NCBI GenBank assembly: GCA_965249525.1
Contig: OZ252237.1
Span: 1,241,470-1,305,469 of the forward strand
DNA from: a bacterium
Lineage (GTDB): Bacteria; SAR324; JACQKK01
DNA length: 64,000 bases
Direction: 5' to 3'
Within the stretch, counting starts at the first letter, position 1. Every line of letters begins with the position of its first letter. Position numbers and translations under genes: made by a program. Positions 2,543 through 50,105 of the stretch are shown here, in pieces. The notes under the pieces are model-generated. The model saw nothing but the letters and a program-made list of their open reading frames with translations. It was not told where the DNA came from and ran no database searches.

Positions 2543-2631
2543 GATTATCTTCATTGGAAACTTTATGTATGGATGATGAATGATGGCAGCTGTCACATAG
2601 CAAAGACAGTCTGGTTGCAAGTTTTGCACAC

Positions 2632-3896: not shown

Positions 3897-3900
3897 GCAG

Positions 3901-8175: not shown

Positions 8176-8177
8176 GC

Positions 8178-8918: not shown

Positions 8919-8932
8919 CCTAGTTTGCGTGA

Positions 8933-10183: not shown

Positions 10184-10312
10184 ACCCCAACATAACTATC
10201 GCTAAGTATAACTATACCCCCAACCATAACCTGCCACCAGCCCCATACGCAATACACCCCACTAACCCACTCCCCTGGGCTATGCTGTTGGGTTTCACCA
10301 ATGGTGCTGATG

Positions 10313-10540: not shown

Positions 10541-12004
10541 ATGAAAACTCTACAATCATCATATACTGTGCCGGGCGTCTTTGTCTTGCTGTTGTCGGCT
10601 GTGCTGCTAAGCCTTGCCAGCTGCGGCGGCGGAGGCGGCGGTGGAGGCGGCGGCGGTGACGACAGCAAGGTTGCCGACAACAGCCCTCCCGACACGCCCC
10701 CTCCCGACGTCACCCCTCCTCCCATCATTGAGCCTGAACCCCTACTAGCCATCTCAGCAGGGTGGGTTCACACTTGTGCCATTGTGGAGGGCAAAGCCTG
10801 GTGCTGGGGAAAGAACGCCAACGGCCAGCTGGGCAACAACAGCACCGATGAGAGCAATCTTCCTGTGGCTGTGGTGCAAACCCCTGCAGTTACCACCGTT
10901 GGCAGCGAAAAAGATGCCGTTCTGCTGGACAGCGGGGTCTCTGCCATCTCAGCAGGGGTTAGCCACACTTGTGCCATTCAGGAGGGTGCCGCCTTCTGCT
11001 GGGGGAGCAACACCAATAGACGGCTGGGCAACTCTTATGGGACCAGCAATGTTGCTGTGCCTATCAGCACGCTGGGCAGCGGGGTCACTGCCATCTCAGC
11101 AGGGGATCGGCACACTTGTGCCATTCATGCTGGCAAAGCCTGGTGCTGGGGGAGCATGCTCAATGGACGGCTGGGTAACAACATCGATGCCACCAGTGTT
11201 AATACGTTTAGCGGTGTTCCTATGGCTGTGATGCTAACCGCTGAAACCACTACCACCATTGGCGGCACCACCACCACCACCGCTGCCACATTCATGGAGG
11301 GTGATGTGGATGCCATCATCTCAGCAGGGAGGGATCACACTTGTGCCGTTCACCTGGAACAAGCCTACTGCTGGGGGAACGGCGACTATGGACGGCTGGG
11401 CAACGACACTACCGACCATAAAAGCCTAGCCACGCTTGTGGGAGCCGCTGGCAGCATGCTGGACAGCGGAGTCACTTCCATCTCAACAGGGAGTGACCAC
11501 ACTTGTGCCATTCACAATACTGCTAGCGGGGATGAAGATGATGCATTTGCCGCCAAGTGCTGGGGGCGCAACAACAGGGGTCAGCTGGGCAGAGAATTTG
11601 CGGTAAGTAGCACTACTGTTCTTTTAAGCCAAAGCGATATTCCCGTGCAGGTCACAGGGCTGGAAAACAATGTCACTGCCATCTCAGCAGCGACTAATCA
11701 CACTTGTGCCGTTCAAGCTGGCAAAGCCTGGTGCTGGGGTGATGAGAAACAGGATCAGCTGGGCGTAACCGACGCTTTATCTCCAAAGCTAAGCTATGTA
11801 CCCCTGGCTGTGGAAATCACCGATGGCGGCCCCCAGCTAAGCGGGGTCACTGACATCTCAGTAGGGCAATTTCACACTTGTGCGCTGCTTGACACTGGTG
11901 TTGTCCAATGCTGGGGGGGTAACGGCAATGGACAGCTGGGGGTTGGCGCGCTTGAAGGTGGTGATGCCACAACCTTCATACCCCAAACCCTGAGCTTTAA
12001 GTAA
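10541..12004 (+). CDS. RCC1-repeat (7-blade) lipoprotein g1
   Basis: MKTLQSSY leader, lipobox LASC + 11 Gly, seven HTCA..CWG..LG repeats, RBS AAGGAGG. Confidence 0.9.
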   Translation: MKTLQSSYTVPGVFVLLLSAVLLSLASCGGGGGGGGGGGDDSKVADNSPPDTPPPDVTPPPIIEPEPLLAISAGWVHTCAIVEGKAWCWGKNANGQLGNNSTDESNLPVAVVQTPAVTTVGSEKDAVLLDSGVSAISAGVSHTCAIQEGAAFCWGSNTNRRLGNSYGTSNVAVPISTLGSGVTAISAGDRHTCAIHAGKAWCWGSMLNGRLGNNIDATSVNTFSGVPMAVMLTAETTTTIGGTTTTTAATFMEGDVDAIISAGRDHTCAVHLEQAYCWGNGDYGRLGNDTTDHKSLATLVGAAGSMLDSGVTSISTGSDHTCAIHNTASGDEDDAFAAKCWGRNNRGQLGREFAVSSTTVLLSQSDIPVQVTGLENNVTAISAATNHTCAVQAGKAWCWGDEKQDQLGVTDALSPKLSYVPLAVEITDGGPQLSGVTDISVGQFHTCALLDTGVVQCWGGNGNGQLGVGALEGGDATTFIPQTLSFK

Positions 12005-12224
12005 CAACCCGCCCAACTAGCATCAAGGCTGCTGTCTGTAACCAGGCAGCAGCCTTTTTTGCAGCGTCCTGACTGCCAAAAAAAATATCCCCATACCCTA
12101 GCATTTGATACAAAGAGGGTGTATTATTATAAACTGGCTTTTGGTGCAAACCCAGGCTATCTTGTAAGAGGCTATCTTGTAAGCTCGTGAGGCATTCTAT
12201 ACTCACATTTCTAAGGAGAAAATT
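12002..12224 (+). repeat. RCC1 cassette leader L1 (extended -10 replaced by tatccccatacc)
   Basis: Same terminator and 15-bp repeats as other copies, but no TATAAT. Confidence 0.9.
12025..12060 (+). terminator. Intrinsic terminator, reiterated after cassette genes
   Basis: aaggctgctgtct-gtaacc-aggcagcagcctt stem with one G.U pair, followed by a T run. Confidence 0.85.
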
Positions 12225-13565
12225 ATGAAAACTCTACAATCATCATATACTGTACCGGGCCTGTTTGTCTTGCTGTTATCGGCTGTACTGCTAAGCCTTG
12301 CCAGCTGCGGCGGGGGTGGCGGCGGTGGCGGTAGCAACGGTGGCGGCAGCCCTGCCATAACAGTTAGTGCTATCTCAGCAGGGGATAGCCACACTTGTGC
12401 CATCCTCAGCACAGGCGCCGCCAAATGCTGGGGAGAGAACTTCAACGGCCAGCTGGGTGACGACAGCACCGATGACAGCAATCTTCCTGCGGCTGTGGTG
12501 CAAACCCCTGCCGATACTTCTGACACTGACTCTGATAAGCATACCTCTGCCGTTCTGCTGGACAGCGGGGTCACTGCCATCTCAGCAGGGTTGGTTCACA
12601 CTTGTGCCATTCATAATGGTGCCGCTAAGTGCTGGGGGTTCAACGGCAATGGACGGCTGGGTGACGGCTTCACCGATGACAGCCCTATTCCCGTGCAGGT
12701 TTCAGGGCTGACTAGCCAGGTCACTGCCATCTCAGCAGGGGGTGCTCACACTTGTGCCATTCACAATACTGCTGGCGAGGGTGAAACTGAGGCACTTGCC
12801 GCCAAATGCTGGGGGCTCAACGGCAATGGACAGCTGGGTGACGGCAGCAGCACTAAGAGGTTAACACCCGTGCAGGTTTCTGGGCTGGGCAACGGAGTCA
12901 TTGACATCTCAGCAGGGGAAGTTCACACTTGTGCCATTCACAGGACTACTGCTGGCAAGCATGCCGCCAAGTGCTGGGGGAGCAACAACAAGGGTCAGCT
13001 GGGCAACGGCGCTACTAGCGGCGAGCAAAATGCACCCGTGCCAGTTGGCGGCGAGCTAGGCGATCTGGTCACTGACATCTCAGCAGGGAATGCTCACACT
13101 TGTGCCATTCAAGATGGCAAAGCCTGGTGCTGGGGTGATAACAGCCTGGGTCAGCTGGGCAGAGTGCTTGGTGTATCTCTAATGGTAAGCGGTACACCCG
13201 AGGCTGTTGTGGACCCTACCAGTGACGGCAGAGACCAGCTAAGCGGGGTCACTGACATCTCAGCAGGGAGTGGTCACACTTGTGCGCTGCTTGCCAGCGG
13301 TGTTGTCCACTGCTGGGGGCTCAACAGCAATGGACAGCTGGGCGTCGACACCACCAGCACTGCAAGCAGCACTATTCCCCTGCAGGTTGAAGGGCTGGAA
13401 AGCCAGGTCACTGCCATCTCAGCAGGGGATGAGCACACTTGTGCACTGCTTGACAGCGGTGTTGTCCAATGCTGGGGGAGTAACGGCGATGGACAGCTGG
13501 GGGTTGGCACACTTTCAGGTGATGCTACCTCAAGCCCCACGCCCCAAGCCCTAAGCTTTGAGTAA
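12225..13565 (+). CDS. RCC1-repeat (7-blade) lipoprotein g2
   Basis: Same leader, LASC + 8 Gly, seven repeats. Confidence 0.9.
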   Translation: MKTLQSSYTVPGLFVLLLSAVLLSLASCGGGGGGGGSNGGGSPAITVSAISAGDSHTCAILSTGAAKCWGENFNGQLGDDSTDDSNLPAAVVQTPADTSDTDSDKHTSAVLLDSGVTAISAGLVHTCAIHNGAAKCWGFNGNGRLGDGFTDDSPIPVQVSGLTSQVTAISAGGAHTCAIHNTAGEGETEALAAKCWGLNGNGQLGDGSSTKRLTPVQVSGLGNGVIDISAGEVHTCAIHRTTAGKHAAKCWGSNNKGQLGNGATSGEQNAPVPVGGELGDLVTDISAGNAHTCAIQDGKAWCWGDNSLGQLGRVLGVSLMVSGTPEAVVDPTSDGRDQLSGVTDISAGSGHTCALLASGVVHCWGLNSNGQLGVDTTSTASSTIPLQVEGLESQVTAISAGDEHTCALLDSGVVQCWGSNGDGQLGVGTLSGDATSSPTPQALSFE

Positions 13566-13789
13566 CAACCCGCCCAACTAGCATCAAGGCTGCTGTCTGT
13601 AACCAGGCAGCAGCCTTTTTTGCAGCTGCTTGACTGCCAAAAAATGAATATCTATGCTATAATAGCATTTAGCACAAAGCAAGTGAATTGATTATAAACT
13701 GGCTTTTAGCACAAACCCGGGCTATCTTGTAAGAGGCTATCTTGTAAGCTCGTGAGGCAACCTATATTCACACTTCTAAGGAGGAGATT
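13563..13789 (+). repeat. RCC1 cassette leader L2
   Basis: Terminator, ATGCTATAATAGCAT palindrome, 2x15-bp repeat, AAGGAGG. Confidence 0.9.
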
Positions 13790-15127
13790 ATGAAAACTCT
13801 ACAATCATCATATACTGTGCCGGGCCTGTTTGTCTTGCTGTTATCGGTTGTGCTGCTAAGCCTTGCCAGCTGCGGTGGAGGTGGCGGCGGCGGTGGAGGC
13901 GGCACCCCTGCCATCGCTAAGCCTAAACCCCCAATAGATGCCATAGCCATCTCAGCAGGGGAAGAACACGCTTGTGCCGTTCTCAGCACAGGCGCCGCCA
14001 AGTGCTGGGGGCTCAACGGCAGTGGACGGCTGGGTGACGGCAGCAAAGCTGACAGGGATATTCCCGTGGCTGTCAGCACGCTGGGCAGCGGGGTCTCTGC
14101 CATCTCAGCAGGGAGTGAGCACACTTGTGCCATTCATAAGGGCGTCGCCAAGTGCTGGGGTTTTAACATATATGGTCAGCTGGGTGACGACAGCATCTCT
14201 GACAGCAATAGTCCCAAGAATGTCGCAGATCTAGGCAGCGGGGTCACTGCCATCTCAGCAGGGAATAGCCACACTTGTGCCATCCTCAGCACAGGTGCCG
14301 CCATGTGCTGGGGAAGTAACCAAAATGCCCAGCTGGGTAAAGGCACCGATATTCCATCCAGCACCACGCCTGTGGAGGTCACGAATCTGGGCAGCGGGGT
14401 CGAAAAAATCTCAGCAGGGGGGTCTCACACTTGTGCCATTCACAATACGGCTACGGCTAGCGTGAGTGACCCTACCCCTGACCCTGTACTTGCCGCCAAG
14501 TGCTGGGGAGATGACACAGAGGGTCAGCTGGGCGACGGCGACACCACCACTGGAGGCCCTACACCCGTGCAGGTTTCTGGGCTGGGCAGCGGAGTCATTG
14601 ACATCTCAGCAGGGCAAAATCACACTTGTGCCATTCACAATACTGCTGCCGAGGGTGAAACTGAGCAACTTGCCGCCAAGTGCTGGGGGAACGACGGCAA
14701 TGGACGGCTGGGCAACGGCAGTGGTGACTCCAATGCAAATGCACCCGTGGCAGTTAGCGGCGAGCTAAACAGCGGAGTCACTGACATCTCAGCAGGGTAT
14801 ACTCACACTTGTGCCGTTCAAGATGGTAAAGTCTGGTGCTGGGGTGATAACAGCCAGGGTCAGCTGGGCAGAGAGATTGCTGTAACATTTCTAACAGCGA
14901 ACCACCGTATACCCGTGGCTGTGGCAGCCAACGATTACATGGGAGACCCGCTAGACGACCAGCTAAGCGGGGTCACCGCCATCTCAGCAGGGCAATTTCA
15001 CACTTGTGCGCTGCTTGACAGCGGTGTTGTCCAATGCTGGGGGAGTAACGTCCAGGGACAGCTGGGGGTTGGCAAAGATCCTATTGATGACTCTACCGCC
15101 ACGCCCCAAACCGTGCGTGAACCCTAA
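13790..15127 (+). CDS. RCC1-repeat (7-blade) lipoprotein g3
   Basis: LASC + 10 Gly, seven repeats, ends TPQTVREP. Confidence 0.9.
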   Translation: MKTLQSSYTVPGLFVLLLSVVLLSLASCGGGGGGGGGGTPAIAKPKPPIDAIAISAGEEHACAVLSTGAAKCWGLNGSGRLGDGSKADRDIPVAVSTLGSGVSAISAGSEHTCAIHKGVAKCWGFNIYGQLGDDSISDSNSPKNVADLGSGVTAISAGNSHTCAILSTGAAMCWGSNQNAQLGKGTDIPSSTTPVEVTNLGSGVEKISAGGSHTCAIHNTATASVSDPTPDPVLAAKCWGDDTEGQLGDGDTTTGGPTPVQVSGLGSGVIDISAGQNHTCAIHNTAAEGETEQLAAKCWGNDGNGRLGNGSGDSNANAPVAVSGELNSGVTDISAGYTHTCAVQDGKVWCWGDNSQGQLGREIAVTFLTANHRIPVAVAANDYMGDPLDDQLSGVTAISAGQFHTCALLDSGVVQCWGSNVQGQLGVGKDPIDDSTATPQTVREP

Positions 15128-15135
15128 GCTTTAAG

Positions 15136-15362
15136 TAACAACCCGCCCAACTAGCATCAAGGCTGCTGTCTGTAACTAGGCAGCAGCCTTTTTTGCAGCG
15201 TCCTGACTGCCAAAAAATGAATATCTATGCTATAATAGCATTTAGCACAAAGCAAGTGAATTGATTATAAACTGGCTTTTAGCACAAACTCAGGCTATCT
15301 TGTAAGAGGCTATCTTGTAAGCTCGTGAGGCATTCTATACTCACATTTCTAAGGAGAAAATC
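15136..15362 (+). repeat. RCC1 cassette leader L3
   Basis: Near-identical to L2/L6. Confidence 0.9.
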
Positions 15363-16670
15363 ATGAAAACTCTACAATCATCATATACTGTACCGGGCGT
15401 CTTTGTCTTGCTGTTATCGGCTGTGCTGCTAAGCCTTGCCAGCTGCGGCGGCGGTGGCGGTAGCAACGGTGGCGGCAGCCCTGCCATAACAGTTAGTGCT
15501 ATCTCAGCAGGGAGTGAGCACACTTGTGCCATCCTCAGCACAGGCGCCGCCAAATGCTGGGGAGAGAACTTCAACGGCCAGCTGGGTGACGACAGCACCG
15601 ATGACAGCAATCTTCCTGCGGCTGTGGTGCAAACCCCTGCCGATACTTCTGACTCTGATAAGCATACCTCTGCCGTTCTGCTGGACAGCGGGGTCACTGC
15701 CATCTCAGCAGGGGGGGGTCACACTTGTGCCATTCATAATGGCGCCGCCAAGTGCTGGGGAAACAACGGACAGGGACGGCTGGGCGACGGCAGCGATACT
15801 GAAAGCAATATTCCCGTGGCTGTCGCAGATCTGGGCAGCGGGGTCACTGCCATCTCAGCAGGGGGTCAGCACACTTGTGCCGTTCACAATGGCGCCGCCC
15901 AGTGCTGGGGTTTAAACCGACTTGGTCAGCTGGGTGACGGCACCGGCATGGAAAGGCTCACACCCACGCAGGTTTCTGAGCTGGGCAGCGGAGTCATTGA
16001 CATCTCAGCAGGGCAAAATCACACTTGTGCCATTCACAATACTGGTACCGAAGATGACCCTGTACTTGCCGCCAAGTGCTGGGGGAGCAATTTCAGTGGC
16101 AAGCTGGGCGACGGCAGCGATACTGAAAGCAATATTCCCGTGGCTGTCGCAGATCTGGACAGCGATGTCACTGCCATCTCAGCAGGGGCTAACCACACTT
16201 GTGCCGTTCATAATGGCGCCGCCAAGTGCTGGGGGAGCGACAGCAAGGGGAAGCTGGGCAACGGCAGTAGTAAAACCCGCAATCAAACCGAACCCATGCT
16301 TGTGGGAGAAACTGGCAGCGAGCTAAGCAGCGGAGTCTCTGCCATCTCAGCAGGGAATCTTCACACTTGTGCCGTTCAAAATACTAAAGCCTGGTGCTGG
16401 GGTGATAACAGCATGGGTCAGCTGGGTGTAAACATTGCTATAACTGCAGCGGAAAGCCATAGACCCGTGGCTGTGGAAACCACCCTTGACGGCAAAATGA
16501 AGCTAAGCGGGGTCACTGCCATCTCAGCAGGGTTGGAGCACACTTGTGCGCTGCTTGCCACTGGCGTTGTCCAATGCTGGGGGAGTAACGTCCAGGGACA
16601 GCTGGGGGTTGGTGCACTTCCAGATGGTGATGCCACAACCCTCACGCCCCAAACCCTGAGCTTTAAGTAA
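15363..16670 (+). CDS. RCC1-repeat (7-blade) lipoprotein g4
   Basis: LASC + 5 Gly, seven repeats. Confidence 0.9.
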   Translation: MKTLQSSYTVPGVFVLLLSAVLLSLASCGGGGGSNGGGSPAITVSAISAGSEHTCAILSTGAAKCWGENFNGQLGDDSTDDSNLPAAVVQTPADTSDSDKHTSAVLLDSGVTAISAGGGHTCAIHNGAAKCWGNNGQGRLGDGSDTESNIPVAVADLGSGVTAISAGGQHTCAVHNGAAQCWGLNRLGQLGDGTGMERLTPTQVSELGSGVIDISAGQNHTCAIHNTGTEDDPVLAAKCWGSNFSGKLGDGSDTESNIPVAVADLDSDVTAISAGANHTCAVHNGAAKCWGSDSKGKLGNGSSKTRNQTEPMLVGETGSELSSGVSAISAGNLHTCAVQNTKAWCWGDNSMGQLGVNIAITAAESHRPVAVETTLDGKMKLSGVTAISAGLEHTCALLATGVVQCWGSNVQGQLGVGALPDGDATTLTPQTLSFK

Positions 16671-16807
16671 CAACCCGCCCAACTAGCATCAAGGCTGCTG
16701 TCTGTAACCAGGCAGCAGCCTTTTTTGCAGCGTCCTGACTGCCAAAAAATGAATATCTATGCTATAATAGCATTTAGCACAAAGCAAGTGAATTTATTAT
16801 AAACTGG
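16668..16807 (+). repeat. Truncated cassette leader L4, joined to the dapD upstream region
   Basis: Follows the consensus to ataaactgg, then diverges; promoter part retained, 15-bp repeats and RBS lost. Confidence 0.85.
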
Positions 16808-16843
16808 TTTTGGGTATTCTCCATTTGTTCGGCTGGCATCCCT

Positions 16844-17977
16844 ATGACCCCTGCCTTTGTTGACCACCTCCAGCAGCTTATTTTACTGCGCATACATTCG
16901 CAGCCAAACACCCTCGCTGTGGTGCCCAGACTGCCCCCAGAGTCGTTGTTCGCTGCCCTGCTGCCACTGTTGGCAGCCCCGTTGGCAGCCCCGCCTGCCA
17001 GCAGCAGCCATGACTCCCCCGTGCTGTGTCGTCTGGACTCCTCAAAGCTGAACAGTCTGCCTGCGGCGCAATTACGCACATTAGAAGCGCATGAGGGAAT
17101 AGCTGCCTTGCTGGCATCAAAGGCGCAATGGGAACAGGTGCAAGTGGAGGTGGTGCGTTCAAAGCGCGCGGGGCTGCTGGAGAGACTGAGTCAGCGACAA
17201 GGTGATGCAGCAGACACCCAAGCATTAATTGAATTGATGGACAGCGGTCAGGTGCGCTGTGCAGAGAAAGTGCGGGGAGTATGGCAGCCGCAGGCTTGGG
17301 TGATTCAGGGGGTGTTGAATTATTTTGCCACCCATGAAATGCAAGTGATGGAACGTGCAGGCTGGGACAAGATTCCCTTAAAGACTCAAGGTTGGGATGC
17401 AGCCCGCTTTGCAGCTGGGGGGGTGCGGTATGCCCCTGGTGCGGTGGTGCGCAAGGGTGCCTGGCTGGGGGCGGGTACGGTGGTGATGAGTCATACATTT
17501 GTGAATATAGGTGCTTGGGTGGGGGGCGAGGGGGTGATGCTGGACACAGGCTCGCGGGTGGCTTCTGCTGCCCAGGTGGGCAAGGGAGTAAAGCTGGGGG
17601 CTGGCAGTGGCTTGGAAGGTGTGTTGGAACCGGCTGGTCGTATGCCTACAATTGTAGAAGACCAGGTGCGCATTGGGGCGATGTGTGAAGCTGCAGGCAT
17701 TATTGAGGAAGGTGCGGTGCTGGCCAGCGGTGTGGTGATGGCTTCTGGCAAGAAAATATATGACGAAGCCACAGGCAAGCTCATTCCTCCCCTGCCCCTA
17801 ACAGTGGAGGGCGTGACCTACCAGCTGCCAGTGATTCCAGCCTGGCGCTTGGCTGTGGGCGGGGCCTTGGTATCCAACAACACCGCTACCGATGCGGTGA
17901 TTCTCAAACCTGGCGATTTGCGAGAACGTGGTACCCTGCGCCATTTTGAGCGTCAAGGTCTGCTGTACAGCCGATAA
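16844..17977 (+). CDS. dapD: Tetrahydrodipicolinate N-succinyltransferase with N-terminal extension
   Basis: LMDSGQVRCAEK, WDKIPLK, PGAVVRKGA, FVNIGAWV, GVLEP and hexapeptide repeats. Confidence 0.85.
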   Translation: MTPAFVDHLQQLILLRIHSQPNTLAVVPRLPPESLFAALLPLLAAPLAAPPASSSHDSPVLCRLDSSKLNSLPAAQLRTLEAHEGIAALLASKAQWEQVQVEVVRSKRAGLLERLSQRQGDAADTQALIELMDSGQVRCAEKVRGVWQPQAWVIQGVLNYFATHEMQVMERAGWDKIPLKTQGWDAARFAAGGVRYAPGAVVRKGAWLGAGTVVMSHTFVNIGAWVGGEGVMLDTGSRVASAAQVGKGVKLGAGSGLEGVLEPAGRMPTIVEDQVRIGAMCEAAGIIEEGAVLASGVVMASGKKIYDEATGKLIPPLPLTVEGVTYQLPVIPAWRLAVGGALVSNNTATDAVILKPGDLRERGTLRHFERQGLLYSR

Positions 17978-17999
17978 AACACCATTTAAGCATGTGGGG

Positions 18000-18033
18000 A
18001 AATCCTCTGCTGGAAATCGCAGGGGTTTTTTTA
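18000..18033 (+). terminator. Intrinsic terminator after dapD
   Basis: aaatcctctgc-tggaaatc-gcaggggttt + T run. Confidence 0.75.
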
Positions 18034-18102
18034 TGCAATTCTTATTTATGATTCTTATGAAATATTACTTGACAATAGGCAAGAATTTGACACAATGGAA
18101 CT

Positions 18103-18121
18103 GAGAATAATAATCATTATT
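18103..18121 (+). promoter_or_regulatory. Fur-family box overlapping a putative -10
   Basis: GAGAATAATAATCATTATT matches GATAATGATAATCATTATC at 16/19; TTGACA at 18069 and 18087. Confidence 0.7.
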
Positions 18122-18159
18122 GTTTATCGGGTCATGGTTGATGGTGAGGTAAGAGTTTT

Positions 18160-19401
18160 ATGACGGAATTGGTAATCAAAGTTCACACCCGATTGCTAAA
18201 ATTGTTGGAGTTGCTGGAGGGTGAGGGGGCGCAAACTGTATTAAAGCCCAAAAACTGGCGGCGCTGGATATTTTATGGGTCCCTATCCGCTTTGTTGCTG
18301 CATCCAGAGACTCGCAGGTTGTTGTTGGAAGTGCTGCGCAACACCTATTTGACGGTGGTGGTGTTTGTGGCAGCCACCTTGGCGATATTTTATTTTCTGG
18401 AGGATTGGTTTCGGGTGGATGTGGCGGCGTTGTTGCAGCGTCATCGTCGCATTCAGCCGATGATTGCTGCCTTAGTGGGGGCTTTGCCTGGATGCGGGGG
18501 GGCGATTATGGTGGTGACACAGTATGTGAAGGGGGGCATCAGTTTTGGGGCATTGATTGCGGTGTTGACTGCAACCATGGGAGATGCGGCGTTCTTGCTT
18601 TTGGCACGCAAGCCCTTGGTGGCATTGGGATTATTTGCTGTCGGTGCTTTGGTGGGGACTGTTACAGGGATGGTGGTGGATGCCATTCATGGACCTGATT
18701 TTCTGCGCAGCAAGAATGTGCCGCAGCACATCAGTACACAGCGGGATTTGTTGGCGCCGCAGCCCTTATTTGGTTTTGCTTGGTTGTTGGCATTGCTTCC
18801 TGGGTTGGTGTTGGGCTTGGCGGATGCGTTTCAGTTAAATCTTGACGGCTTGCTGGGATTTAGTGAAGGATTTTGGCTGCCTTCTATGGTGGTAGGAGTG
18901 GCAGGAGGCACTTTAAGCATGCTGATGTGGGATTTGCTGCCTTATCGCCAGCCTCCTGTGAAGCCCAAGGGTTGTCGGGTGGAACGAAAAGACATGTTCC
19001 GCTGGCAGTATGGTTCTACCATTAGCCGCATTGTGAATGACACCAACTTTGTTACCAAGTGGGTGGTGATGGCATTTTTGTTTTATGAGTTGTTGTTATT
19101 CTTTAGCGGGGTGGAGTTGGGGAATGTGTTTCGTTTGTGGGCGCCGTTGGTGCCGCTGGTTGCAGTGCTGATGGGCTTTATCCCTGGTTGTGGACCACAG
19201 GTGTTGGTAACAGCCCTGTATGTGGATGGCTTCATTCCGTTTTCTGCCCAGCTGGGCAATGCAATTAGCAATGATGGAGATGCCCTCTTCCCTGCTATTG
19301 CCATAGCCCCCAAGGCTTCTATTGTGGCCACCTTGTATAGTGCTATTCCTGCGGTGCTGATGTCATACGGTTGGTATTGGCTGTTTGAAAGGGGGGGATA
19401 G
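18160..19401 (+). CDS. Putative manganese/metal transporter (DUF2899-type permease)
   Basis: Two internal repeats with GALPGCGGAI and GFIPGCGPQV, TATMGDAAF, NAISNDGDALFP. Confidence 0.8.
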   Translation: MTELVIKVHTRLLKLLELLEGEGAQTVLKPKNWRRWIFYGSLSALLLHPETRRLLLEVLRNTYLTVVVFVAATLAIFYFLEDWFRVDVAALLQRHRRIQPMIAALVGALPGCGGAIMVVTQYVKGGISFGALIAVLTATMGDAAFLLLARKPLVALGLFAVGALVGTVTGMVVDAIHGPDFLRSKNVPQHISTQRDLLAPQPLFGFAWLLALLPGLVLGLADAFQLNLDGLLGFSEGFWLPSMVVGVAGGTLSMLMWDLLPYRQPPVKPKGCRVERKDMFRWQYGSTISRIVNDTNFVTKWVVMAFLFYELLLFFSGVELGNVFRLWAPLVPLVAVLMGFIPGCGPQVLVTALYVDGFIPFSAQLGNAISNDGDALFPAIAIAPKASIVATLYSAIPAVLMSYGWYWLFERGG

Positions 19402-19516
19402 CCACACTTGTGCCCTTCACAATGGCGCCGCCAAGTGCTGGGGGCGCAACTTAGGCAGGCGGGGCGACGGCAGCACCCATACCAGCAACAACCCCAAAAC
19501 CGTGTTGTTTGAATAA
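19394..19516 (+). pseudogene. Orphan last blade of a CARDB-RCC1-type gene
   Basis: Reads GDSHTCALHNGAAKCWGRNLGRRGDGSTHTSNNPKTVLFE*; the 3' end aaccgtgttgtttgaataagccgtggc matches the end of the 24464 gene. Confidence 0.85.
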
Positions 19517-19574
19517 GCCGTGGCGGGCTACTTATACAGCTGCGGGGGGCGGTTCCCCCTGCATCACACCGCCC

Positions 19575-19758
19575 TGGCAGCAGCCTTTTTTGCAGCGTCC
19601 TGACTGCCAAAAAATGAATATTATGCTATAATAACATTTAGCACAAAGCAAGTGAATTGATTATAAACTGGCTTTTGGTGCAAACCCAGGCTATCTTGTA
19701 AGAGGCTATCTTGTAAGCTCGTGAGGCATACTATATTCACACTTCTAAGGAGGAGATT
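19575..19758 (+). repeat. RCC1 cassette leader L5 (begins at terminator 3' half)
   Basis: ggcagcagcctttttt...tgctataat...2x15-bp repeat...AAGGAGG. Confidence 0.9.
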
Positions 19759-21165
19759 ATGAAAACTCTACAATCATCATATACTGTGCCGAGCGTGTTT
19801 GTCTTGCTGTTATCGGCTGTGCTGCTAAGCCTTGCCAGCTGCGGCGGGGGTGGAGGCGGCGGCGGTGGCAGCAGCAACGGCGGCAGCAGCGCTGCCATAA
19901 AAGTTAGTGCTATCTCAGCAGGGAATAGCCACACTTGTGCCATCCTCAGCACAGGCGCCGCCCAGTGCTGGGGAAATAACGCCACCGGCCAGCTGGGCAA
20001 CAACAGCACCGCTGAGAGCAATCTTCCTGTGGCTGTGGTGCAAACCCCTGCCGATACTTCTGACTCTGATAAGCATACCTCTGCCGTTCTGCTGGACAGC
20101 GGGGTCGATAAAATCTCAGCAGGGAGTGAGCACACTTGTGCCGTCCTCAGCACAGGCGCCGCCCAGTGCTGGGGGAGTAACGTGAATGGACGGCTGGGCA
20201 ACAGTGATACCGATGACAGCAGTACTCCCATGGATGTCACAGGGCTGAACAGCGAGGTCACTGCCATCTCAGCAGGGGGGCAGCACACTTGTGCCATTCA
20301 TGGTGGCGCCGCCTTCTGCTGGGGGAACATGAGCGATGGACGGCTGGGTAACAACATGAATCCCGCGGCTAGTGCTACGATTAAGCATAGCGATGTTCCT
20401 GTGGCTGTGCTGCTAACCGCTGAAACCACTACCACCAGTGGCGGCACCTCCACCACCACCGCTGCCACATTCATGGAGGGCGATGTGGATGCCATCATCT
20501 CAGCAGGGACTTTTCACACTTGCGCCGTTCACCTGGAAACAGCCTACTGCTGGGGGGCCGATGGCCATGGACGGCTGGGCAACGGCGCTGATATTACCGA
20601 CAATCAAGGCCTACCCACGCTTGTGGATGTGAGCGCGCTGGAGAGCGGAGTCATGATTAACATCTCAGCAGGGCTTCAGCACACTTGTGCCATTCACAGG
20701 ACTACTGCTGGCGGTGTTAATAAGGATGCCGCCTACTGCTGGGGGAGCAACAGCCATGGTCAGCTGGGCAACGGTGCTACTAGCGGCGAGCAAAATGCAC
20801 CCGTGCCAGTTGGCGGCGAGCTAGGCGATCTGGTCACTGACATCTCAGCAGGGGGGGTTCACACTTGTGCCATTCAAGATGGCAAAGCCTGGTGCTGGGG
20901 TAATAACAACCTGGGTCAGCTGGGCAGAGTGCTTGGTGTATCTCCAATGGTAAGCGGTACACCCGAGGCTGTGGCAACCACCGATGGCGGCAAACAGCTA
21001 AGCGGGGTCAATAAAATCTCAGCAGGGAACACTCACACTTGTGCGCTGCTTAACACTGGTGTTGTCCAATGCTGGGGGAGTAACGGACAGGGACGGCTGG
21101 GGGTTGGCGCGCTTGAAGGTGGTGATGCCACAACCTTCACGCCCCAAACCCTGAGCTTTAAGTAA
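19759..21165 (+). CDS. RCC1-repeat (7-blade) lipoprotein g5
   Basis: LASC + 9 Gly, seven repeats. Confidence 0.9.
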   Translation: MKTLQSSYTVPSVFVLLLSAVLLSLASCGGGGGGGGGSSNGGSSAAIKVSAISAGNSHTCAILSTGAAQCWGNNATGQLGNNSTAESNLPVAVVQTPADTSDSDKHTSAVLLDSGVDKISAGSEHTCAVLSTGAAQCWGSNVNGRLGNSDTDDSSTPMDVTGLNSEVTAISAGGQHTCAIHGGAAFCWGNMSDGRLGNNMNPAASATIKHSDVPVAVLLTAETTTTSGGTSTTTAATFMEGDVDAIISAGTFHTCAVHLETAYCWGADGHGRLGNGADITDNQGLPTLVDVSALESGVMINISAGLQHTCAIHRTTAGGVNKDAAYCWGSNSHGQLGNGATSGEQNAPVPVGGELGDLVTDISAGGVHTCAIQDGKAWCWGNNNLGQLGRVLGVSPMVSGTPEAVATTDGGKQLSGVNKISAGNTHTCALLNTGVVQCWGSNGQGRLGVGALEGGDATTFTPQTLSFK

Positions 21166-21389
21166 CAACCCTTCCCGCCACCACCAAGGCTGCTGTCTGT
21201 AACCAGGCAGCAGCCTTTTTTGCAGCGTCCTGACTGCCAAAAAATGAATATCTATGCTATAATAGCATTTAGCACAAAGCAAGTGAATTGATTATAAACT
21301 GGCTTTTGGTGCAAACCCAGGCTATCTTGTAAGAGGCTATCTTGTAAGCTCGTGAGGCAACCTATATTCACACTTCTAAGGAGGAGATT
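21163..21389 (+). repeat. RCC1 cassette leader L6
   Basis: Matches L2/L3 apart from the left terminator flank. Confidence 0.9.
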
Positions 21390-22751
21390 ATGAAAACTCT
21401 ACAATCATCATATACTGTGCCGGGCCTGTTTGTCTTGCTGTTATCGGCTGTGCTGCTAAGCCTTGCCAGCTGCGGCGGCGGAGGCGGCGGCGGTGGCAGC
21501 AGCAACGGCGGCGGCAGCGCTGCCATAAAAGTTAGTGCTATCTCAGCAGGGAATAGCCACACTTGTGCCATCCTCAGCACAGGCGCCGCCCAGTGCTGGG
21601 GAAATAACGCCACCGGCCAGCTGGGCAACAACAGCACCGCTGAGAGCAATCTTCCTGTGGCTGTGGTGCAAACCCCTGCCGATACTTCTGACTCTGATAA
21701 GCATACCTCTGCCGTTCTGCTGGACAGCGGGGTCACTGCCATCTCAGCAAGGGGTCTTCATACTTGTGCCATTCATAATGGTGCCGCCAAGTGCTGGGGG
21801 TTCAACGGCAATGGACGGCTGGGTACCGCCTCCAGCACTGACACCAAGATTCCCCATCAGGTTTTAGGAGAGCTGGACAGCGATGCCACTACCAGTGCCA
21901 TCTCAGCAGGGGGGCAGCACACTTGTGCCATTCATGGTGGCGCCGCCTTCTGCTGGGGGAACATGCTCAGTGGACGGCTGGGTAACAACATGGTTGCCGA
22001 TGCGTTTAGCGATTTTCCTGTGGCTGTGCTGCTAAAAGCTGCAGTTACCACCGACCCCACCGAACCTGCCAAATTCATGGACGGCGATGTGGATGCCATC
22101 ATCTCAGCAGGGGAGTCTTACACTTGTGCCGTTCACCTGGAAAAAGCCTACTGCTGGGGGTACAACGGCAGTGGACAGCTGGGCAACGACACTACCGACA
22201 ATAAAAGCCTAGCCACGCTTGTGAGCGTGGACAGCGGAGTCATGATTAACATCTCAGCAGGGCTTCAGCACACTTGTGCCATTCACAGGACTACTGCTGG
22301 CGGTGTTAATAAGGATGCCGCCTACTGCTGGGGGAGCAACAGCCATGGTCAGCTGGGCAACGGTGTTACTAGAGGCAATCAAAGTGCACCCGTGGAAGTT
22401 GGCGGCGAGCTAGGCGATCTGGTCACTGACATCTCAGCAGGGGCTTCTCACACTTGTGCCGTTCAAGATGGCAAAGCCTGGTGCTGGGGTAATAACAGCC
22501 AGGGTCAGCTGGGCAGAGTGCTTGGTGTATCTCCAATGGTAAGCGCTACACCCGTGGCTGTGGACCCCAGCGGTGACGGCAGAGGCCAGCTAAGCGGGGT
22601 CAATAAAATCTCAGCAGGGCAATTTCACACTTGTGCGCTGCTTAACACTGGCGTTGTCCAATGCTGGGGGGGTAACGGCAATGGACAGCTGGGGGTTGGC
22701 AGCAAGCCTGCTGGCTCAACCTCCACGCCCCAAACCGTGCGTGAACCCTAA
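21390..22751 (+). CDS. RCC1-repeat (7-blade) lipoprotein g6
   Basis: LASC + 8 Gly, seven repeats, ends TPQTVREP. Confidence 0.9.
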   Translation: MKTLQSSYTVPGLFVLLLSAVLLSLASCGGGGGGGGSSNGGGSAAIKVSAISAGNSHTCAILSTGAAQCWGNNATGQLGNNSTAESNLPVAVVQTPADTSDSDKHTSAVLLDSGVTAISARGLHTCAIHNGAAKCWGFNGNGRLGTASSTDTKIPHQVLGELDSDATTSAISAGGQHTCAIHGGAAFCWGNMLSGRLGNNMVADAFSDFPVAVLLKAAVTTDPTEPAKFMDGDVDAIISAGESYTCAVHLEKAYCWGYNGSGQLGNDTTDNKSLATLVSVDSGVMINISAGLQHTCAIHRTTAGGVNKDAAYCWGSNSHGQLGNGVTRGNQSAPVEVGGELGDLVTDISAGASHTCAVQDGKAWCWGNNSQGQLGRVLGVSPMVSATPVAVDPSGDGRGQLSGVNKISAGQFHTCALLNTGVVQCWGGNGNGQLGVGSKPAGSTSTPQTVREP

Positions 22752-22785
22752 GCTTTGAGTAACAACCCGCCTAACTAGCATCAAG

Positions 22786-29405: not shown

Positions 29406-31447
29406 ATGCAGTCTATCAGCAAATGTTTCAAAAAATGTTTCAAACAAGTTCTTAAAGTGCTTAATGCTAAGAGTGCCACTTTCCCTCAGGCTGCACTTGG
29501 CAGTCTGCGGTTTTCCCTTGCCCAAGTATTGTGGGTGATGCTGCCTGTGCTGCTGCTGCTGGGCAGCTGCGGCGGCGGTGGCGGCGGCGGCACACCCGAG
29601 ACACCTGCGCCCAATTTAAGCATCTCAGCTGCTGCTGATGCCAGCAGCGTGAAGCATGAGGAATCTTTCAGCTTTTCGTTCACGGTGAACAATTCCGGTG
29701 ACGCCAGCGCCGACGGCACCACCCTTACAATCTACCGTTCTGCAGACGAAACCCTTGTTCCAGAGGAGGATGAGGTAGAAGCTGACTCAAGCTCGGTTCC
29801 TGAACTGGCTGCTGGGGCTACTTCTGATACTATTTCTACCACCATTACCATACCCGTAACCCTTGCCCCTGGTGATTATCACTACTACGCTTGTGTTACA
29901 AATACCAACATCTGTTCCCAAGCTTTTACAATAACGGTTGCAGGTATTCCAGACCTCGGGTTGGGTTCCGCTGTTGCTGATACCGACATCTTGCAACGTG
30001 GGAAATCTTTCACTTTCTCTGTCACGGTAAGCAATGTCGGCAGCGGCCGCAGCTCCGCCAGTGCCACCCTTGGAGTCTACCGTTCTGTAGACAACAGCAT
30101 CACCCCAGATTCTGATACTGAGGTTGGCACAGAAGTCACGGTGCCTGAACTGGATGCTGGCGACACCATTCCTAGTCTTAGCACCATGATTACCGCACCT
30201 GATGACCTTGCAGCTGAAACTTATTACTACTACGCCTGTGTGGGTGTTGCGGGTGATGCCGACAGAACCAATGACTGTTCTAATTCTGTTGCAATTCAGG
30301 TAACTGAGACCAAGCCTTCCCGTGCCATCTTCGCAGGGCATGGTCACTCTTGTGCCATTGTGGAAAGGGGCGAAGCCTGGTGCTGGGGAGATAATGGAGA
30401 TGGCCAGCTGGGCAACAACAGCAACGCTGACAGAAACAGACCCGTGGCTGTGGTGCAAACCCTTGCCGATGCTGATGCCATCCCTCCCATCTCTCTCACC
30501 CATCTTAGCGGGGTGACGAACATGGCAGCAGGGGGAGACCACACTTGTGCCATTGTCAGTGGCGCCGCCAAGTGCTGGGGGCAAACGGCAATGGACGATT
30601 GGGCGACAACAGCATCGGTAACAGACGTATTCCCGTGCAGGTTTCAGGGCTGACCAGCGAGGTCACTGCCATCTCAGCAGGGAATGCTCACACTTGTGCG
30701 ATTGTAGATGACGCCGCCTGGTGCTGGGGAAGTAACGGCAATGGACGGCTGGGTGACGACAGCACCAATGAACGCAGGACCCCCGTGCAGGTTGATGGAC
30801 TGACCAGCGATGTTGAAGCCATCTCAGCAGGGGAAGCCCACACTTGTGCCATTGTAGATGGCGCCGCCAAGTGCTGGGGGAACAACGATGATGGCAGACT
30901 GGGCGACGGCGAAACCACTCATAGAGATACTCCTGTAGAGGTTAGTGGTCTGGGCAGCAATGTTACTGCCATCTCAGCAGGGACTAAGCACACTTGTGCG
31001 GTTCACCAGGGCGCCGCCAAGTGTTGGGGAAGGGGCTCTCGTGGCCGGCTGGGCAACAATAGCACCTCTGAGAGCCGTACTCCAGCGGATGTGGTGCAAA
31101 CCCCTGTTGCTGGTACGACCCCTGCCGTCTTGCTGGACAGCGGAGTGACTGCCATCTCAGCAGGGGAGTATCACACTTGTGCCATTCACAATGGCGCTGC
31201 TTTGTGCTGGGGATCGAGGTTCGCTGGCAAGCTGGGTATTGGTGGTTCCACCTCTGGTAACCGCATCTGGCCTGCGCAGGTTTCGGGGCTGGGCAGCGAT
31301 GTCTCTGCTATTTCAGTAGGGAATAATCACTCTTGTGCCATTCACCAGGGAATTGCCAAGTGCTGGGGTACCAACTCAGCTGGCATACTAGGCGATGGCG
31401 GCGGTTCTTCACGTAGCTCCACCCCCGTACGCGTGCTGTTTCCATAA
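29406..31447 (+). pseudogene. CARDB x2 + RCC1 x7 lipoprotein split by a -1 frameshift in a G run (30577-30581)
   Basis: ORFs 29406-30653 and 30545-31447 join as KCWG-ANGNGRLG if G5 were G6. Confidence 0.8.
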
Positions 31448-48349: not shown

Positions 48350-48562
48350 TAGCTTACAAGACAGCCTCTTACAAGATAGCCTGGGTTTGCACCAAAAACC
48401 AGTTTCTAATAAATACAGCCTGGCTAATTCAGCTTGGCTAATTTACCTGGCTTGGTGCTAAATGCTATTATAGCATAATTTTTTTTGGCAGTCAGGACAC
48501 TGCAAAAAAGGCTGCTGCCTGGTTACAGACAGCAGCCTTGATGCTAGTTGGGCGGGTTGTTA
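48350..48562 (-). repeat. Cassette leader L8, directly upstream of the tolB start
   Basis: Terminator, CTGACT-N17-TATAAT, 15-bp repeats, then ATGTTGATGCAA. Confidence 0.9.
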
Positions 48563-49861
48563 CTCAAAGCTCAGGGTTTGGGGCACGGAGGTTGAGGTAT
48601 CAGGCTCGCTGTCAGCATCATCACCATCTGCAAGCTCGCCAACCCCCAGCCGTCCATTGTTGTTGGCACCCCAGCATTTGGCAACGCCGCTGTGAAGCGC
48701 ACAAGTGTGCAAATTCCCTGCTGAGATGGCAGTGACATCGTTTTCCAGCCCGTCAACCTGCACGGGAATATTGCTGGTGGTGGTGCTGGTGGCGACGCCC
48801 AGCTGACCATTGCTGTTACTCCCCCAGCACTTGGCGGCGCCCTTGTGAACCACACAAGTGTGAAATTGCCCTGCTGAGATTTTGGCATCGGCATCGACTT
48901 CCAGCAAGGCTTCATCGATAGAGTTGTCAGGGTCGGCAACGGTTTGCACCACAGCCACAGGAACCAGACTTTGAGTGATTTTGCCGTTACCCAGCCGTCC
49001 ACTGCCGTTGTTCCCCCAGCACCAGGCTTTGCCCTCCACAATGGCACAAGTGTGAGAAATCCCTGCTGAGATGATGGCATTGACATCGCTAGTCAGCACG
49101 TCAACCTGCACAGGCGTCTTGCGGTTATTATTATCTACAATACTGAAACCAACGTCAAAAGTGGTAACGGTGCCGTCACCCAGCTTGCCATTGCCATTGC
49201 TCCCCCAGCACTTGGCGACGCCATTATGAATGGCACAAGTGTGGCTACTCCCTGCTGAGATGGCAGTGACATCGCTAGTCAGCCCTGTGACCTGCACGGG
49301 AGTAGTGTTGCTACTCACTTCTTTGCCCAGCTGACCAAATTGATTACTCCCCCAGCACTTGGCGGCGCCACCATGAATGGCACAAGTGTGAGCACCCCCT
49401 GCTGAGATGGCAGTGACCCCACTGCCCAGCGTGCTGACAGCCATGGGAGTACTGCTGTCATCGGTATTACCTCTGCCCAGCTGTCCATCGCCGCCGTACC
49501 CCCAGCACTGGGCGGCGCCTGTGCTGAGGACGGCACAAGTGTGACCCGCCGCTGAGATGGCAGTGACCCCACTGCCCAGCGTGCTGACAGCCACAGGAAG
49601 ATTGCTGTCAGTGCCGCTCTCTTTGTTGCCCAGCTGGCCGCTGGCGTTATGTCCCCAGCACCAGGCTTTGCCCTCCACCATGGCACAAGTGTGACTTTGC
49701 CCTGCTGTAATAGCACTAGCCGTTAACGGTATGGCAGCACTGCCGCCGCCGCTGCCGCCGCCACCACCGCCCCCGCCGCAGCTGGCAAGGCTTAGCAGTA
49801 CAGCCGACAACAGCAAGACAAACAGGCTTGGCGCAGCATATAATGATTTTAGATTTTTCAT
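48560..49861 (-). CDS. RCC1-repeat (7-blade) lipoprotein g7
   Basis: MKNLKSLY leader, LASC + Gly, seven repeats. Confidence 0.9.
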   Translation of the reverse strand: MKNLKSLYAAPSLFVLLLSAVLLSLASCGGGGGGGGSGGGSAAIPLTASAITAGQSHTCAMVEGKAWCWGHNASGQLGNKESGTDSNLPVAVSTLGSGVTAISAAGHTCAVLSTGAAQCWGYGGDGQLGRGNTDDSSTPMAVSTLGSGVTAISAGGAHTCAIHGGAAKCWGSNQFGQLGKEVSSNTTPVQVTGLTSDVTAISAGSSHTCAIHNGVAKCWGSNGNGKLGDGTVTTFDVGFSIVDNNNRKTPVQVDVLTSDVNAIISAGISHTCAIVEGKAWCWGNNGSGRLGNGKITQSLVPVAVVQTVADPDNSIDEALLEVDADAKISAGQFHTCVVHKGAAKCWGSNSNGQLGVATSTTTSNIPVQVDGLENDVTAISAGNLHTCALHSGVAKCWGANNNGRLGVGELADGDDADSEPDTSTSVPQTLSFE

Positions 49862-50105
49862 GATCTCCTCCTTAGAAGTGTGAATATAGAATGCCTCACG
49901 AGCTTACAAGATAGCCTCTTACAAGATAGCTTCTTGCAAGATAGCCTGGATTTGCACCAAAAGCCAGTTTCTAATAAATTCACTTGCTTTGGTGTAAGTG
50001 TTATTATAGCATAATATTTTTTCTTTGGCAGTCAGGACGCTGCAAGAAAAAAGGCTGCTGCCTGGTTACAGACAGCAGCCTTTATGCTAGTTGGGCGGGT
50101 TGTTA
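49862..50105 (-). repeat. Cassette leader L9 (three 15-bp units)
   Basis: Reverse complement of the consensus element. Confidence 0.9.

Follow-up and report, generated by a model that had tools for sequence, protein, structure and literature searches.

Mosaic RCC1-like propeller lipoproteins in a SAR324 bacterium: exchange among paralogs, a constant blade number, and evidence for diversifying selection

How can tandem genes exchange segments to the point that no single tree describes them, and still keep the same number of repeats in every member? The question is raised by a 64,000-nucleotide stretch (hereafter the window) of the single 1.72-Mb contig of a small-genome, marine-type SAR324 bacterium, in which an array at positions 10541 to 22751 holds six genes (g1 to g6), arranged head to tail on the forward strand, for RCC1-like lipoproteins. 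In each protein, a poly-Gly tether follows the lipoprotein signal peptide and leads to an RCC1-like β-propeller of seven blades. A preliminary description, made from the letters of this DNA, had counted eight such genes, i.e., g1 to g6 together with g7 and g8, the last two of which lie outside 10541 to 22751; three further short members (p3, p4, and p5) sit ~700 kb from the array. It had proposed blade-level gene conversion or shuffling under selection for complete propellers, comparable to antigenic-variation systems. The present analysis confirms its observation and partly supports its interpretation. The explanation that we consider probable is a lineage-specific, expanded lipoprotein family in which conversion among paralogs, passed through a seven-blade filter and a novelty filter, would yield a standing repertoire of binding propellers.

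The RCC1-like paralogs are recombinational mosaics

Recombination among the paralogs is demonstrated by several lines of evidence. The pairwise homoplasy index (PHI), in our own implementation, had z values that fell from –15 with six genes to –20 with eight and –28 with eleven, and 0 of 1,000 permutations reached the observed value. Because conserved anchors alternate with variable loops, 40 data sets without recombination were simulated on the maximum-likelihood (ML) tree, the observed rate of every site being kept in its place along the sequence; these controls gave a z of +0.56 ± 0.93 and a false-positive rate of 3%, against a z of –25 for the real data. ML trees built separately for the head, each blade, and the tail support conflicting groups: g1, g5, and g6 in blades 3 and 4 (99 to 100% support), g2 and g6 in blade 2 (87%), g3 and g6 in blade 7 plus the tail (94%), and g2 and p5 in blade 6 (100%). 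Nearly every segment's tree was rejected on every other segment's alignment by the approximately unbiased (AU) test, mostly at p < 0.01, and a GENECONV-like run-length test placed 15 of 55 gene pairs beyond all 2,000 permutations. Synonymous divergence (dS) also changes along single pairs: in g5-g6 it rises from 0.010 in blade 1 to 0.45 in blade 2 and is 0.000 in blade 5, and in g2-g4 it is 0.003 in blade 1 and 0.29 to 0.56 in blades 2 to 6. This contrast between tracts excludes mere rate variation.

The statement that no single tree explains the genes is therefore upheld by PHI, the AU test, the blade trees, the run-length test, and the painting described below; the trees conflict and PHI is decisive, and congruent blade trees with no recombination signal were not obtained. 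The finer resemblances listed in the preliminary description are equally real. The shared 5' parts of g2 and g4 reach 94 to 99% identity, and those of g5 and g6 reach 99%, including a 221-nt identical run. All six quoted peptides are exact in the pairs named, with TAETTTT and FMEGDVDAIISAG common to g1 and g5, NDTTD.KSLATLV to g1 and g6, GNGATSGEQNAPVPVGGELGDLVTDISAG to g2 and g5, GVMINISAGLQHTCAIHRTTAGGVNKDAAYCWG to g5 and g6, and GALEGGDATTF to g1 and g5.

Exchanged tracts range from small patches to several blades

The mosaics were painted without alignment by comparing 60-nt windows with all 24 paralogs at any offset, a procedure used instead of blastn at an 88% identity filter, which missed most tracts as its high-scoring segment pairs run through diverged DNA. 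Each gene is a patchwork of tracts 93 to 99% identical to differing donors, and a copying-model segmentation counted 144 donor switches in 11 genes. Since the tracts measure from ~20 to ~400 nt, the unit of exchange is not the blade; of the blade-level exchange first proposed, conversion and shuffling hold, whereas the blade as their unit does not, many breakpoints lying within blades. Identical runs of 130 to 220 nt occur between paralogs. Whole blades are swapped as well. Blade 2 of g5 matches blade 2 of p4, p3, and g7, which form a distant clade, and not blade 2 of g6, and both switch points fall within the ISAG anchors of blades 2 and 3.

Clustering of the blades into modules at a nucleotide identity of at least 86% (strings in Table 1) places the same modules at different blade positions. 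Modules C-H occupy blades 4 and 5 in g2 and blades 5 and 6 in g5 and g6, C stands at blade 4 in p5 too, L is blade 3 of g4 and blade 4 of g3, and M occurs twice within g4. Exchange has thus also taken place out of register, and its partners reach copies 26 kb and ~700 kb away. Modules that shifted position imply either that blades were gained and lost or that tracts were copied in a shifted register.

All array members keep a seven-bladed propeller

All six array proteins score above the Pfam cut-offs, with 205 to 261 bits for PF25390 (cut-off 150), 160 to 217 bits for PF00415, and 127 to 174 bits for PF13540. Each of g1 to g8 has seven CWG anchors in aligned columns and seven hits of a blade hidden Markov model (HMM), as the earlier count of seven repeats in all eight genes had it. 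The AlphaFold2 model of g5 is a seven-bladed propeller (predicted local distance difference test score [pLDDT], 85.7; predicted template modeling score [pTM], 0.84). Its best Foldseek match is UVR8 (target-normalised TM, 0.83 to 0.88); the RCC1-like domains (RLDs) of RCC1, HERC1/2, and RPGR follow at 0.73 to 0.83, BLIP-II was also matched, and every solved relative found in this way is seven-bladed. Over the whole genome, the blade HMM finds exactly seven blades in 21 of the 24 paralogs. Two of the remaining three reflect weak or missed hits, and the third is a frameshifted gene at 29406-31447 that scores 2 + 5. The constant seven fits purifying selection for ring closure. Seven is, at the same time, the norm of the RCC1-like fold, an expected constraint and not special to this array; the proposed selection for complete propellers is thus supported insofar as seven blades are kept despite the module moves, and loses force insofar as seven is a general rule of the fold.

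The lipobox context, read by eye, is MKTLQSSYTVPG.FVLLLSAVLLSLAS-C-GGGG in all eight genes, and the +2 residue after the lipobox Cys is Gly, not Asp; the family lipoproteins would presumably reside in the outer envelope and be exposed at the surface. The poly-Gly run varies in length from 5 to 11 across paralogs and is encoded by mixed GGC, GGT, GGA, and GGG codons, so that a change in its length stays in frame. A Pro-rich spacer, DDSKVADNSPPDTPPPDVTPPPIIEPEP, separates tether and propeller in g1 alone (10541-10760). The C-terminal tails are of types that differ by a short patch, in which CTGA -> GTGCGTGAACCCTAA converts ...PQTLSFK* to ...PQTVREP*, and the old GCTTTAAGTAA stop region persists as a vestige in the PQTVREP* variant. 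The patch sites lie at the 3' ends of g3 (~15100-15140) and g6 (~22725-22765), and the REP tail variant is dispersed over g3, g6, p4, and p5.

Nonsynonymous differences concentrate at a few blade positions

Across whole propellers, the ratio of nonsynonymous to synonymous differences per site (pN/pS) ranges from 1.2 to 2.6. Among recently homogenised pairs, g5-g6 reaches 1.96 (100 differences nonsynonymous, 17 synonymous; P = 0.0055), g1-g5 2.61 (P = 0.00016), and g2-p5 1.62 (P = 0.033). In the signal peptides and linkers of these pairs the ratio is 0.38, and nonsynonymous changes are significantly depleted there. With each segment given its own tree, ML codon models returned one-ratio ω values of 1.05, 1.43, 1.29, 1.43, 1.22, 1.54, and 2.06 for blades 1 to 7, averages that include the invariant scaffold codons, and of 0.50 for the head.

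In a 77-blade alignment, the columns that vary are the AG-xx-HTCA pair (15 and 13 amino acids), each x of CWG-x-N-xx-G, and the loop preceding P-V-x-V. In 58 blade pairs at least 86% identical, 431 codon differences are nonsynonymous and 79 synonymous; the di-codon that encodes the AG-xx-HTCA pair differs in 72 to 76% of these pairs and the CWG-proximal positions in 53 to 64%, and the codons flanking the di-codon show 0 amino-acid changes. At the di-codon itself, 86 differences are nonsynonymous and 1 is synonymous. In phmmer alignments, the di-codon falls opposite the W-R pair of the UVR8 GWRHT motifs (W285/R286), and comparison of the wild-type with the D96N/D107N/W285A mutant chains of UVR8 equates column 4 with W285 and column 37 with D96. 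W285, R286, and D96 of UVR8 make up its dimer and partner interface, and the alignment of the variable positions with them suggests that the variable residues would form a ring on one propeller face. There is strong evidence for diversifying selection on that face.

Plain concerted evolution, in which duplicates recombine simply through their similarity and leave a selectively neutral mosaic, with variable sites that are merely unconstrained surface, would explain a part of these data. The recombination signals require no adaptive explanation, the flanking cassette and the signal peptide are 93 to 98% identical among copies and constitute long homology blocks, and general recombination genes are present, no special machinery having been found. 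Relaxed constraint, however, can raise dN/dS (dN, nonsynonymous divergence) only up to 1, and the ratios of 1.96 and 2.61 come from recently homogenised pairs; ω exceeds 1 in all seven blade segments despite the invariant scaffold codons, and the 86-to-1 count at the di-codon speaks against neutral concerted evolution, which we regard as unlikely.

Each gene has its own expression cassette

Alignment of 11 family upstream regions revealed a cassette of ~200 nt before every family gene, composed of a terminator hairpin, a TTGACT-17/18-TATAAT promoter, a leader repeat, and an AAGGAGG ribosome-binding site (RBS). The tandem unit of the leader, GCTATCTTGTAAGAG, sits between the promoter and the RBS, and its copy number ranges from 1 to 3 among the paralogs; the g2 cassette has the degenerate –10 box CCCCATACCCT in place of TATGCTATAAT, the sole such case among the 11. 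As the leader copy number varies and the –10 box of g2 is degenerate, the expression level may differ between copies, and, with a cassette of its own before every gene, all copies look expressible. No silent (promoterless or truncated) donor cassette was found among the 11 aligned members and no recombinase or invertase among the neighbour genes of the array, the reverse transcriptase family PF00078 had no match in the genome (control genomes matched), and no frame-shifting slippage repeat was found, the poly-Gly tract being in frame. RecA, MutS, and MutL are present in the genome; with MutS and MutL intact, mismatch-repair loss was rejected as a cause of homeologous exchange.

The likeness to antigenic variation drawn in the preliminary description fails at this level of machinery. 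Programmed antigenic or phase variation of the pilE/pilS, vlsE, or msp2 type, by which a host or phages would be evaded, could explain why a reduced genome has many surface-lipoprotein paralogs that are segmental mosaics and why dN exceeds dS, and expression could differ through the leader copies and the g2 –10 box. All copies are, however, complete, each with its own terminator, promoter, RBS, ATG start, signal peptide, and lipobox, and no short-family copy is promoterless or truncated. Silent cassettes, a nearby recombinase or invertase, and a reverse transcriptase in the genome are missing, the poly-Gly GGN codons keep the frame, and no inverted-repeat switch was seen. We judge programmed variation to be very unlikely.

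Invariant anchors surround a hypervariable di-codon

Every blade has the anchor ATCTCAGCAGGG-N6-CACACTTGTGCC, which is nearly free of synonymous variation around the hypervariable di-codon; the codons ATC TCA GCA GGG nnn nnn CAC ACT TGT GCC occur in nearly every blade. Among the 77 blades, TCA is used in 73/73, GGG in 71/72, and ACT in 76/76 cases, and Cys is encoded by TGT in HTC (76/77) and by TGC in CWG (77/77). Genome-wide, TCA makes up 12% of Ser codons, GGG 20% of Gly codons, and ACT 21% of Thr codons. The distant paralogs p0-p2, p11-p13, and p20 use identical anchor codons, and the genus' only other species (G001) varies them freely. Minor codons that are shared by distant paralogs and free in the sister species point to anchors homogenised within this genome, not to an old constraint. 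Codon bias was rejected as the source of the invariant anchors, their codons being minor genome-wide and the two Cys sites differing in codon, and a deep nucleotide-level constraint was rejected on account of the free variation in the sister species.

All 73 genomic occurrences of the exact frame TCAGCAGGG-N6-CACACTTGTG fall within RCC1 genes, and 55 distinct N6 sequences are found among them. Of 39 blade pairs whose identity outside the di-codon is at least 90%, 12 differ at 0 to 1 di-codon bases and the other 27 at 3 to 6, and the differing pairs have a mean of 4.5 differences versus 4.05 in unrelated blades. Blade 1 of g2 and that of g4 differ at 0/195 bases outside the di-codon and at 5/6 inside it (GATAGC at 12384-12389 in g2, AGTGAG at 15513-15518 in g4); for blade 1 of g7 and p4, the counts are 1/147 and 6/6. 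Identical di-codons in otherwise unrelated blades number 21 pairs versus 8.9 expected (P < 0.0005). We read these patterns as replacement of the di-codon patch as a unit, by micro-conversion or by conversion tracts that spare the patch, and then selection; the data fit both routes.

In the amino-acid-hypervariable columns, codon base 3 is column-specific and conserved, and bases 1 and 2 vary. Column 37, with 14 amino acids, has C as base 3 in 63/77 blades, and the di-codon codons are 87% G/T-ending versus 49% expected (P ~1e-9).

Such a pattern, together with di-codon changes that are all-or-none within otherwise identical tracts, could be produced by targeted hypermutation of the di-codon and the other variable codons, acting like a diversity-generating retroelement (DGR) or a deaminase and guided by the 12-nt anchors. 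A DGR was nevertheless rejected, the genome being devoid of a reverse transcriptase; a template repeat was not recognised either. Each of the four bases is represented at positions 1, 2, 4, and 5 of the di-codon, so the changes are not adenine-specific, identical di-codons in unrelated blades indicate copying and not de novo mutation, and a conserved base 3 is already predicted by low dS with high dN; hypermutation therefore deserves very little credence. The DGR reading that has been proposed for the DUF1554 lipoproteins at 37138-58814 of the window meets the same caution. Chimeric joining of paralogs or strains by a metagenome assembler, whose short-read graph could be misled by identical runs of 130 to 220 nt, can be practically dismissed, for the genome is a single 1.72-Mb contig, an assembler cannot create dozens of tracts of 90 to 99% identity or 6-nt patches inside identical tracts, and every gene has retained an open frame, seven blades, and an intact cassette.

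A further, more doubtful proposal is that the 12-nt anchors ATCTCAGCAGGG and CACACTTGTGCC could serve as homology arms for copying 6-nt di-codons and larger modules among ~150 blades, in and out of register, and that anchor conservation might be kept because it sustains exchange. If true, the family would make up a combinatorial library of closed seven-bladed binders, built in a bacterium by recombination, which may be likened to the di-residues of transcription activator-like (TAL) effectors or to the repeats of fungal NOD-like receptors (NLRs), plus a hard ring-closure constraint.

A standing repertoire as the probable explanation

For the repertoire of binding propellers that we consider probable, ordinary homologous recombination between paralogs (ectopic gene conversion) would generate the diversity. 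The pieces exchanged would range from 6-nt patches and half blades up to three-blade blocks. Exchange would proceed either in register or with a shift of one blade, both inside the array and with copies 26 kb and ~700 kb off. Two filters might then operate: only closed seven-bladed propellers would persist, and amino-acid novelty would be favoured at the AG-xx-HTCA pair, the CWG-x-N-xx-G x positions, and the loops. The outcome would be a standing repertoire of differently tipped propellers, presumably exposed at the surface and binding a ligand, and not a switch between an expressed gene and silent copies.

Several points weigh against this explanation. The dN/dS values were obtained by Nei-Gojobori counting and by one-ratio ML, both applied to repeats that recombine and are in part misaligned, and patches imported from diverged paralogs raise both dN and dS. 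The placement of the variable residues on one face relies on the sequence alignment to UVR8, not on model coordinates, and the sorting of the lipoproteins and their surface exposure are presumptive. Breakpoints, whose mapping relative to the anchors the preliminary description had suggested, are modestly enriched there (80 versus 59 ± 6 expected), an excess that is confounded as the anchors are without diagnostic sites. Finally, no related strain was found in the searches, and the probable direction, rate, and continuation of exchange to the present are deduced from the paralogs of one genome.

Genomic context of the array

About 24 RCC1-domain genes were found genome-wide by tblastn, amounting to ~39 kb or 2.3% of 1.72 Mb. 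Identity between g7 and its paralog p4, ~700 kb away, is 91%, and g8 has only the tail and a few out-of-register patches in common with other members. Several long paralogs of 790 to 870 aa carry additional N-terminal CARDB and Ig-like domains. In the genes at 185-2554 and 24464-26869, CARDB/DUF11 and Ig-like domains are joined to a seven-bladed propeller with the family anchor codons, and the N-terminal 40 residues of the 185-2554 gene are identical to those of the gene immediately upstream of the window. The frameshift in the 29406-31447 paralog falls directly past a CWG anchor; this split gene is either a pseudogene or a sequencing error. Apart from the two unrelated genes that split the array (Table 1), its neighbours are housekeeping genes, for FtsW/RodA, a Mur ligase, PrsW, an ExbB-like protein, a DAO oxidoreductase, and phosphoglycerate mutase.

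The RCC1 expansion is lineage-specific. The sister species (G001, 1.6 Mb) has fewer RCC1 copies, mainly of the double-propeller kind and at most 47% identical, and larger-genome relatives have none to few. Among 5.8 billion proteins, matches to g5 above 45% identity are found only among the genome's own paralogs, the nearest outside ones being at most 45% identical; g2 matched distant RCC1 proteins only, at most 50% identical and from many phyla, in a collection of genome contigs that excludes the window's own lineage. A search of metagenome contigs for an orthologous locus, with the DapD-like gene as an anchor, gave 117 pattern hits and 0 relatives, and an exact-protein look-up of the DapD-like gene found no record. 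In the sister species, three tandem lipoproteins of ~850 aa (G001:C1:1376001-1392000, L093; ORFs 3667-6216, 6768-9314, and 9802-12432) have 13 CWG anchors each (double propellers), and their pairwise identity swings between 76% and 100% per 150-nt window. This patchy identity indicates that exchange among RCC1 paralogs is not unique to the window's genome.

Table 1. Genes, exchanged tracts, and upstream cassettes of the RCC1-like family and adjoining genes (positions in the window; module strings read blades 1 to 7; nt, position within the gene)
Feature	Position	Strand	Blade modules	Description
g1	10541..12004	+	..FG..A	487 aa RCC1-like seven-bladed lipoprotein; Pfam RLD 229 bits, RCC1 170 bits
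g2	12225..13565	+	B..CHKA	446 aa; ORF, Pfam
g3	13790..15127	+	...L..A	445 aa; TVREP tail variant
g4	15363..16670	+	BMLM..A	435 aa; ORF, Pfam
g5	19759..21165	+	BDFGCHA	468 aa; ORF, Pfam, AlphaFold2, Foldseek
g6	21390..22751	+	B.FGCHA	453 aa; ORF, Pfam
g7	48560..49861	-	NDOPIJE	433 aa; same family, 26 kb downstream
g8	50103..51476	-		457 aa; most diverged of the eight
p4			NDOPIJE	
p5			...C.KA	
Recent conversion tract	12309..12638	+		g2 nt 85-414, 94-99% identical to g4 (15438-15762)
Recent conversion tract	19840..20121	+		g5 nt 82-363, 99% identical to g6 (21468-21734); dS 0.010
Out-of-register tract	12963..13214	+		g2 nt 739-990 (blades 4-5), 93-97% identical to g5 nt 970-1221 (20728-20979; g5 blades 5-6), offset +231 nt
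Swapped whole blade	20122..20256	+		g5 blade 2 (module D); nucleotide alignment and painting
Shared loop tract	20386..20535	+		g5 nt 628-777, 94% identical to g1 nt 667-816 (11207-11356); long TAETTTT...FMEGDVDAIISAG loop of blade 3
Intergenic cassette (example)	12005..12224	+		Hairpin AAGGCTGCTG...CAGCAGCCTTTTTT, promoter, GCTATCTTGTAAGAG leader repeat, RBS
Further cassette regions	10281-10540, 13566-13789, 15128-15362, 19500-19758, 21166-21389			
Cassettes upstream of g7/g8	49862-50102, 51477-51736			
DapD-like hexapeptide acyltransferase	16844-17977	+		Pfam; unrelated single-copy gene splitting the array
ArsP_2 10-TM exporter	18160-19401	+		Pfam; unrelated single-copy gene splitting the array
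Long paralog	185..2554	-		789 aa; N-terminal domains, then seven-bladed RCC1 propeller; family anchor codons
Long paralog	24464-26869	-		CARDB and Ig-like domains, then RCC1 propeller; resembles the 185..2554 gene
Frameshifted long paralog	29406..31447	+		Overlapping ORFs 29406-30653 and 30545-31447; 2 + 5 blades

Comparison with known systems

The closest parallel is the NWD/HET-D/HET-E WD40 family of Podospora anserina (Paoletti, Saupe, and Clave 2007, PMC1805685; Chevanne 2010, PMC2873952); NLR repeats of "high internal conservation" are the subject of two other papers (PMC4986451 and PMC12222747). According to the first report (PMC1805685), the ~10 fungal paralogs have repeats that are highly similar at the nucleotide level through repeat-unit exchange, a handful of interaction-surface positions per repeat are under positive diversifying selection, reshuffling is followed by selection, and single loci carry between 2 and 15 WD40 repeats. 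To that extent, ectopic conversion and diversifying selection acting together on a homogenised scaffold are already known. The family in the window resembles the fungal one in that repeats are homogenised within and between paralogs and a few hypervariable sites, which the UVR8 alignment would place on the surface, have dN > dS. It differs in its constant repeat number (seven in 21/24 paralogs versus 2 to 15) and in being made up of bacterial RCC1 lipoproteins, each with its own promoter, whereas the fungal proteins are eukaryotic, intracellular NLRs with WD40 repeats. Fungal repeat-induced point mutation (RIP) may add mutations, and no equivalent was seen here.

RCC1/BLIPII propellers make up 10% of highly repetitive propellers, mostly bacterial, in the survey of Pereira and Lupas 2022 (PMC9218822), which explains blade similarity by recent amplification from single blades; the terms gene conversion, recombination, and hypervariable positions occur 0 times in it. 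The present proteins resemble that set as bacterial RCC1-type propellers with unusually similar blades; unlike in that set, similarity spans ~24 paralogs of one genome, with inter-paralog exchange and dN > dS. BLIP-II, matched by the g5 model, is a secreted seven-bladed binder. No earlier account of such a repertoire of bacterial RCC1 lipoproteins was found in the literature.

Neisseria opa and Helicobacter babA/babB/babC are complete, individually promoted surface genes that exchange segments by RecA-dependent conversion, and their repeats (CTCTT in opa, CT in bab) are phase-variable and turn copies on and off. The likeness lies in several complete genes with promoters of their own exchanging segments. 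Unlike in opa and bab, a frame-shifting repeat was not found in the window family, and, as opa and bab proteins are not internally repetitive, out-of-register exchange and a constraint on repeat number do not arise there. TAL effector repeats are near-identical DNA units in which two adjacent hypervariable codons set binding specificity, and they recombine within and between paralogs. Two adjacent hypervariable codons in near-identical units are what the two systems have in common, a likeness of design and not of homology; the TAL array is a DNA-reading solenoid of variable repeat number, whereas the propellers are closed rings of seven with further variable positions. pilE/pilS, vlsE, and msp2 each combine one expression site with promoterless partial cassettes. 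Segmental mosaic conversion among many paralogous surface-protein sequences is shared with them; the 11 members here, by contrast, do not divide into one expression site and donor cassettes.

If the proposed explanation is true, the array would be a clear bacterial case of a design known from eukaryotic systems such as fungal NLR WD40 repeats and lamprey variable lymphocyte receptors (VLRs), and from TAL di-residues, in which recombination homogenises the scaffold and a few surface codons are driven apart. It would also be a natural experiment in which blades have moved and no six- or eight-bladed product survives, illustrating how a closed-ring fold limits repeat shuffling. The expenditure of ~2.3% of a reduced genome on one family suggests an important interaction with a varied or evolving partner, which in this uncultivated lineage may be a host, prey, a phage, or a competitor enzyme. 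The family further maps the freely variable positions of an RCC1 propeller, which should be useful for binder engineering. Set beside the systems above, it looks like a natural route to a repertoire of binding proteins, and not like a programmed antigen switch.

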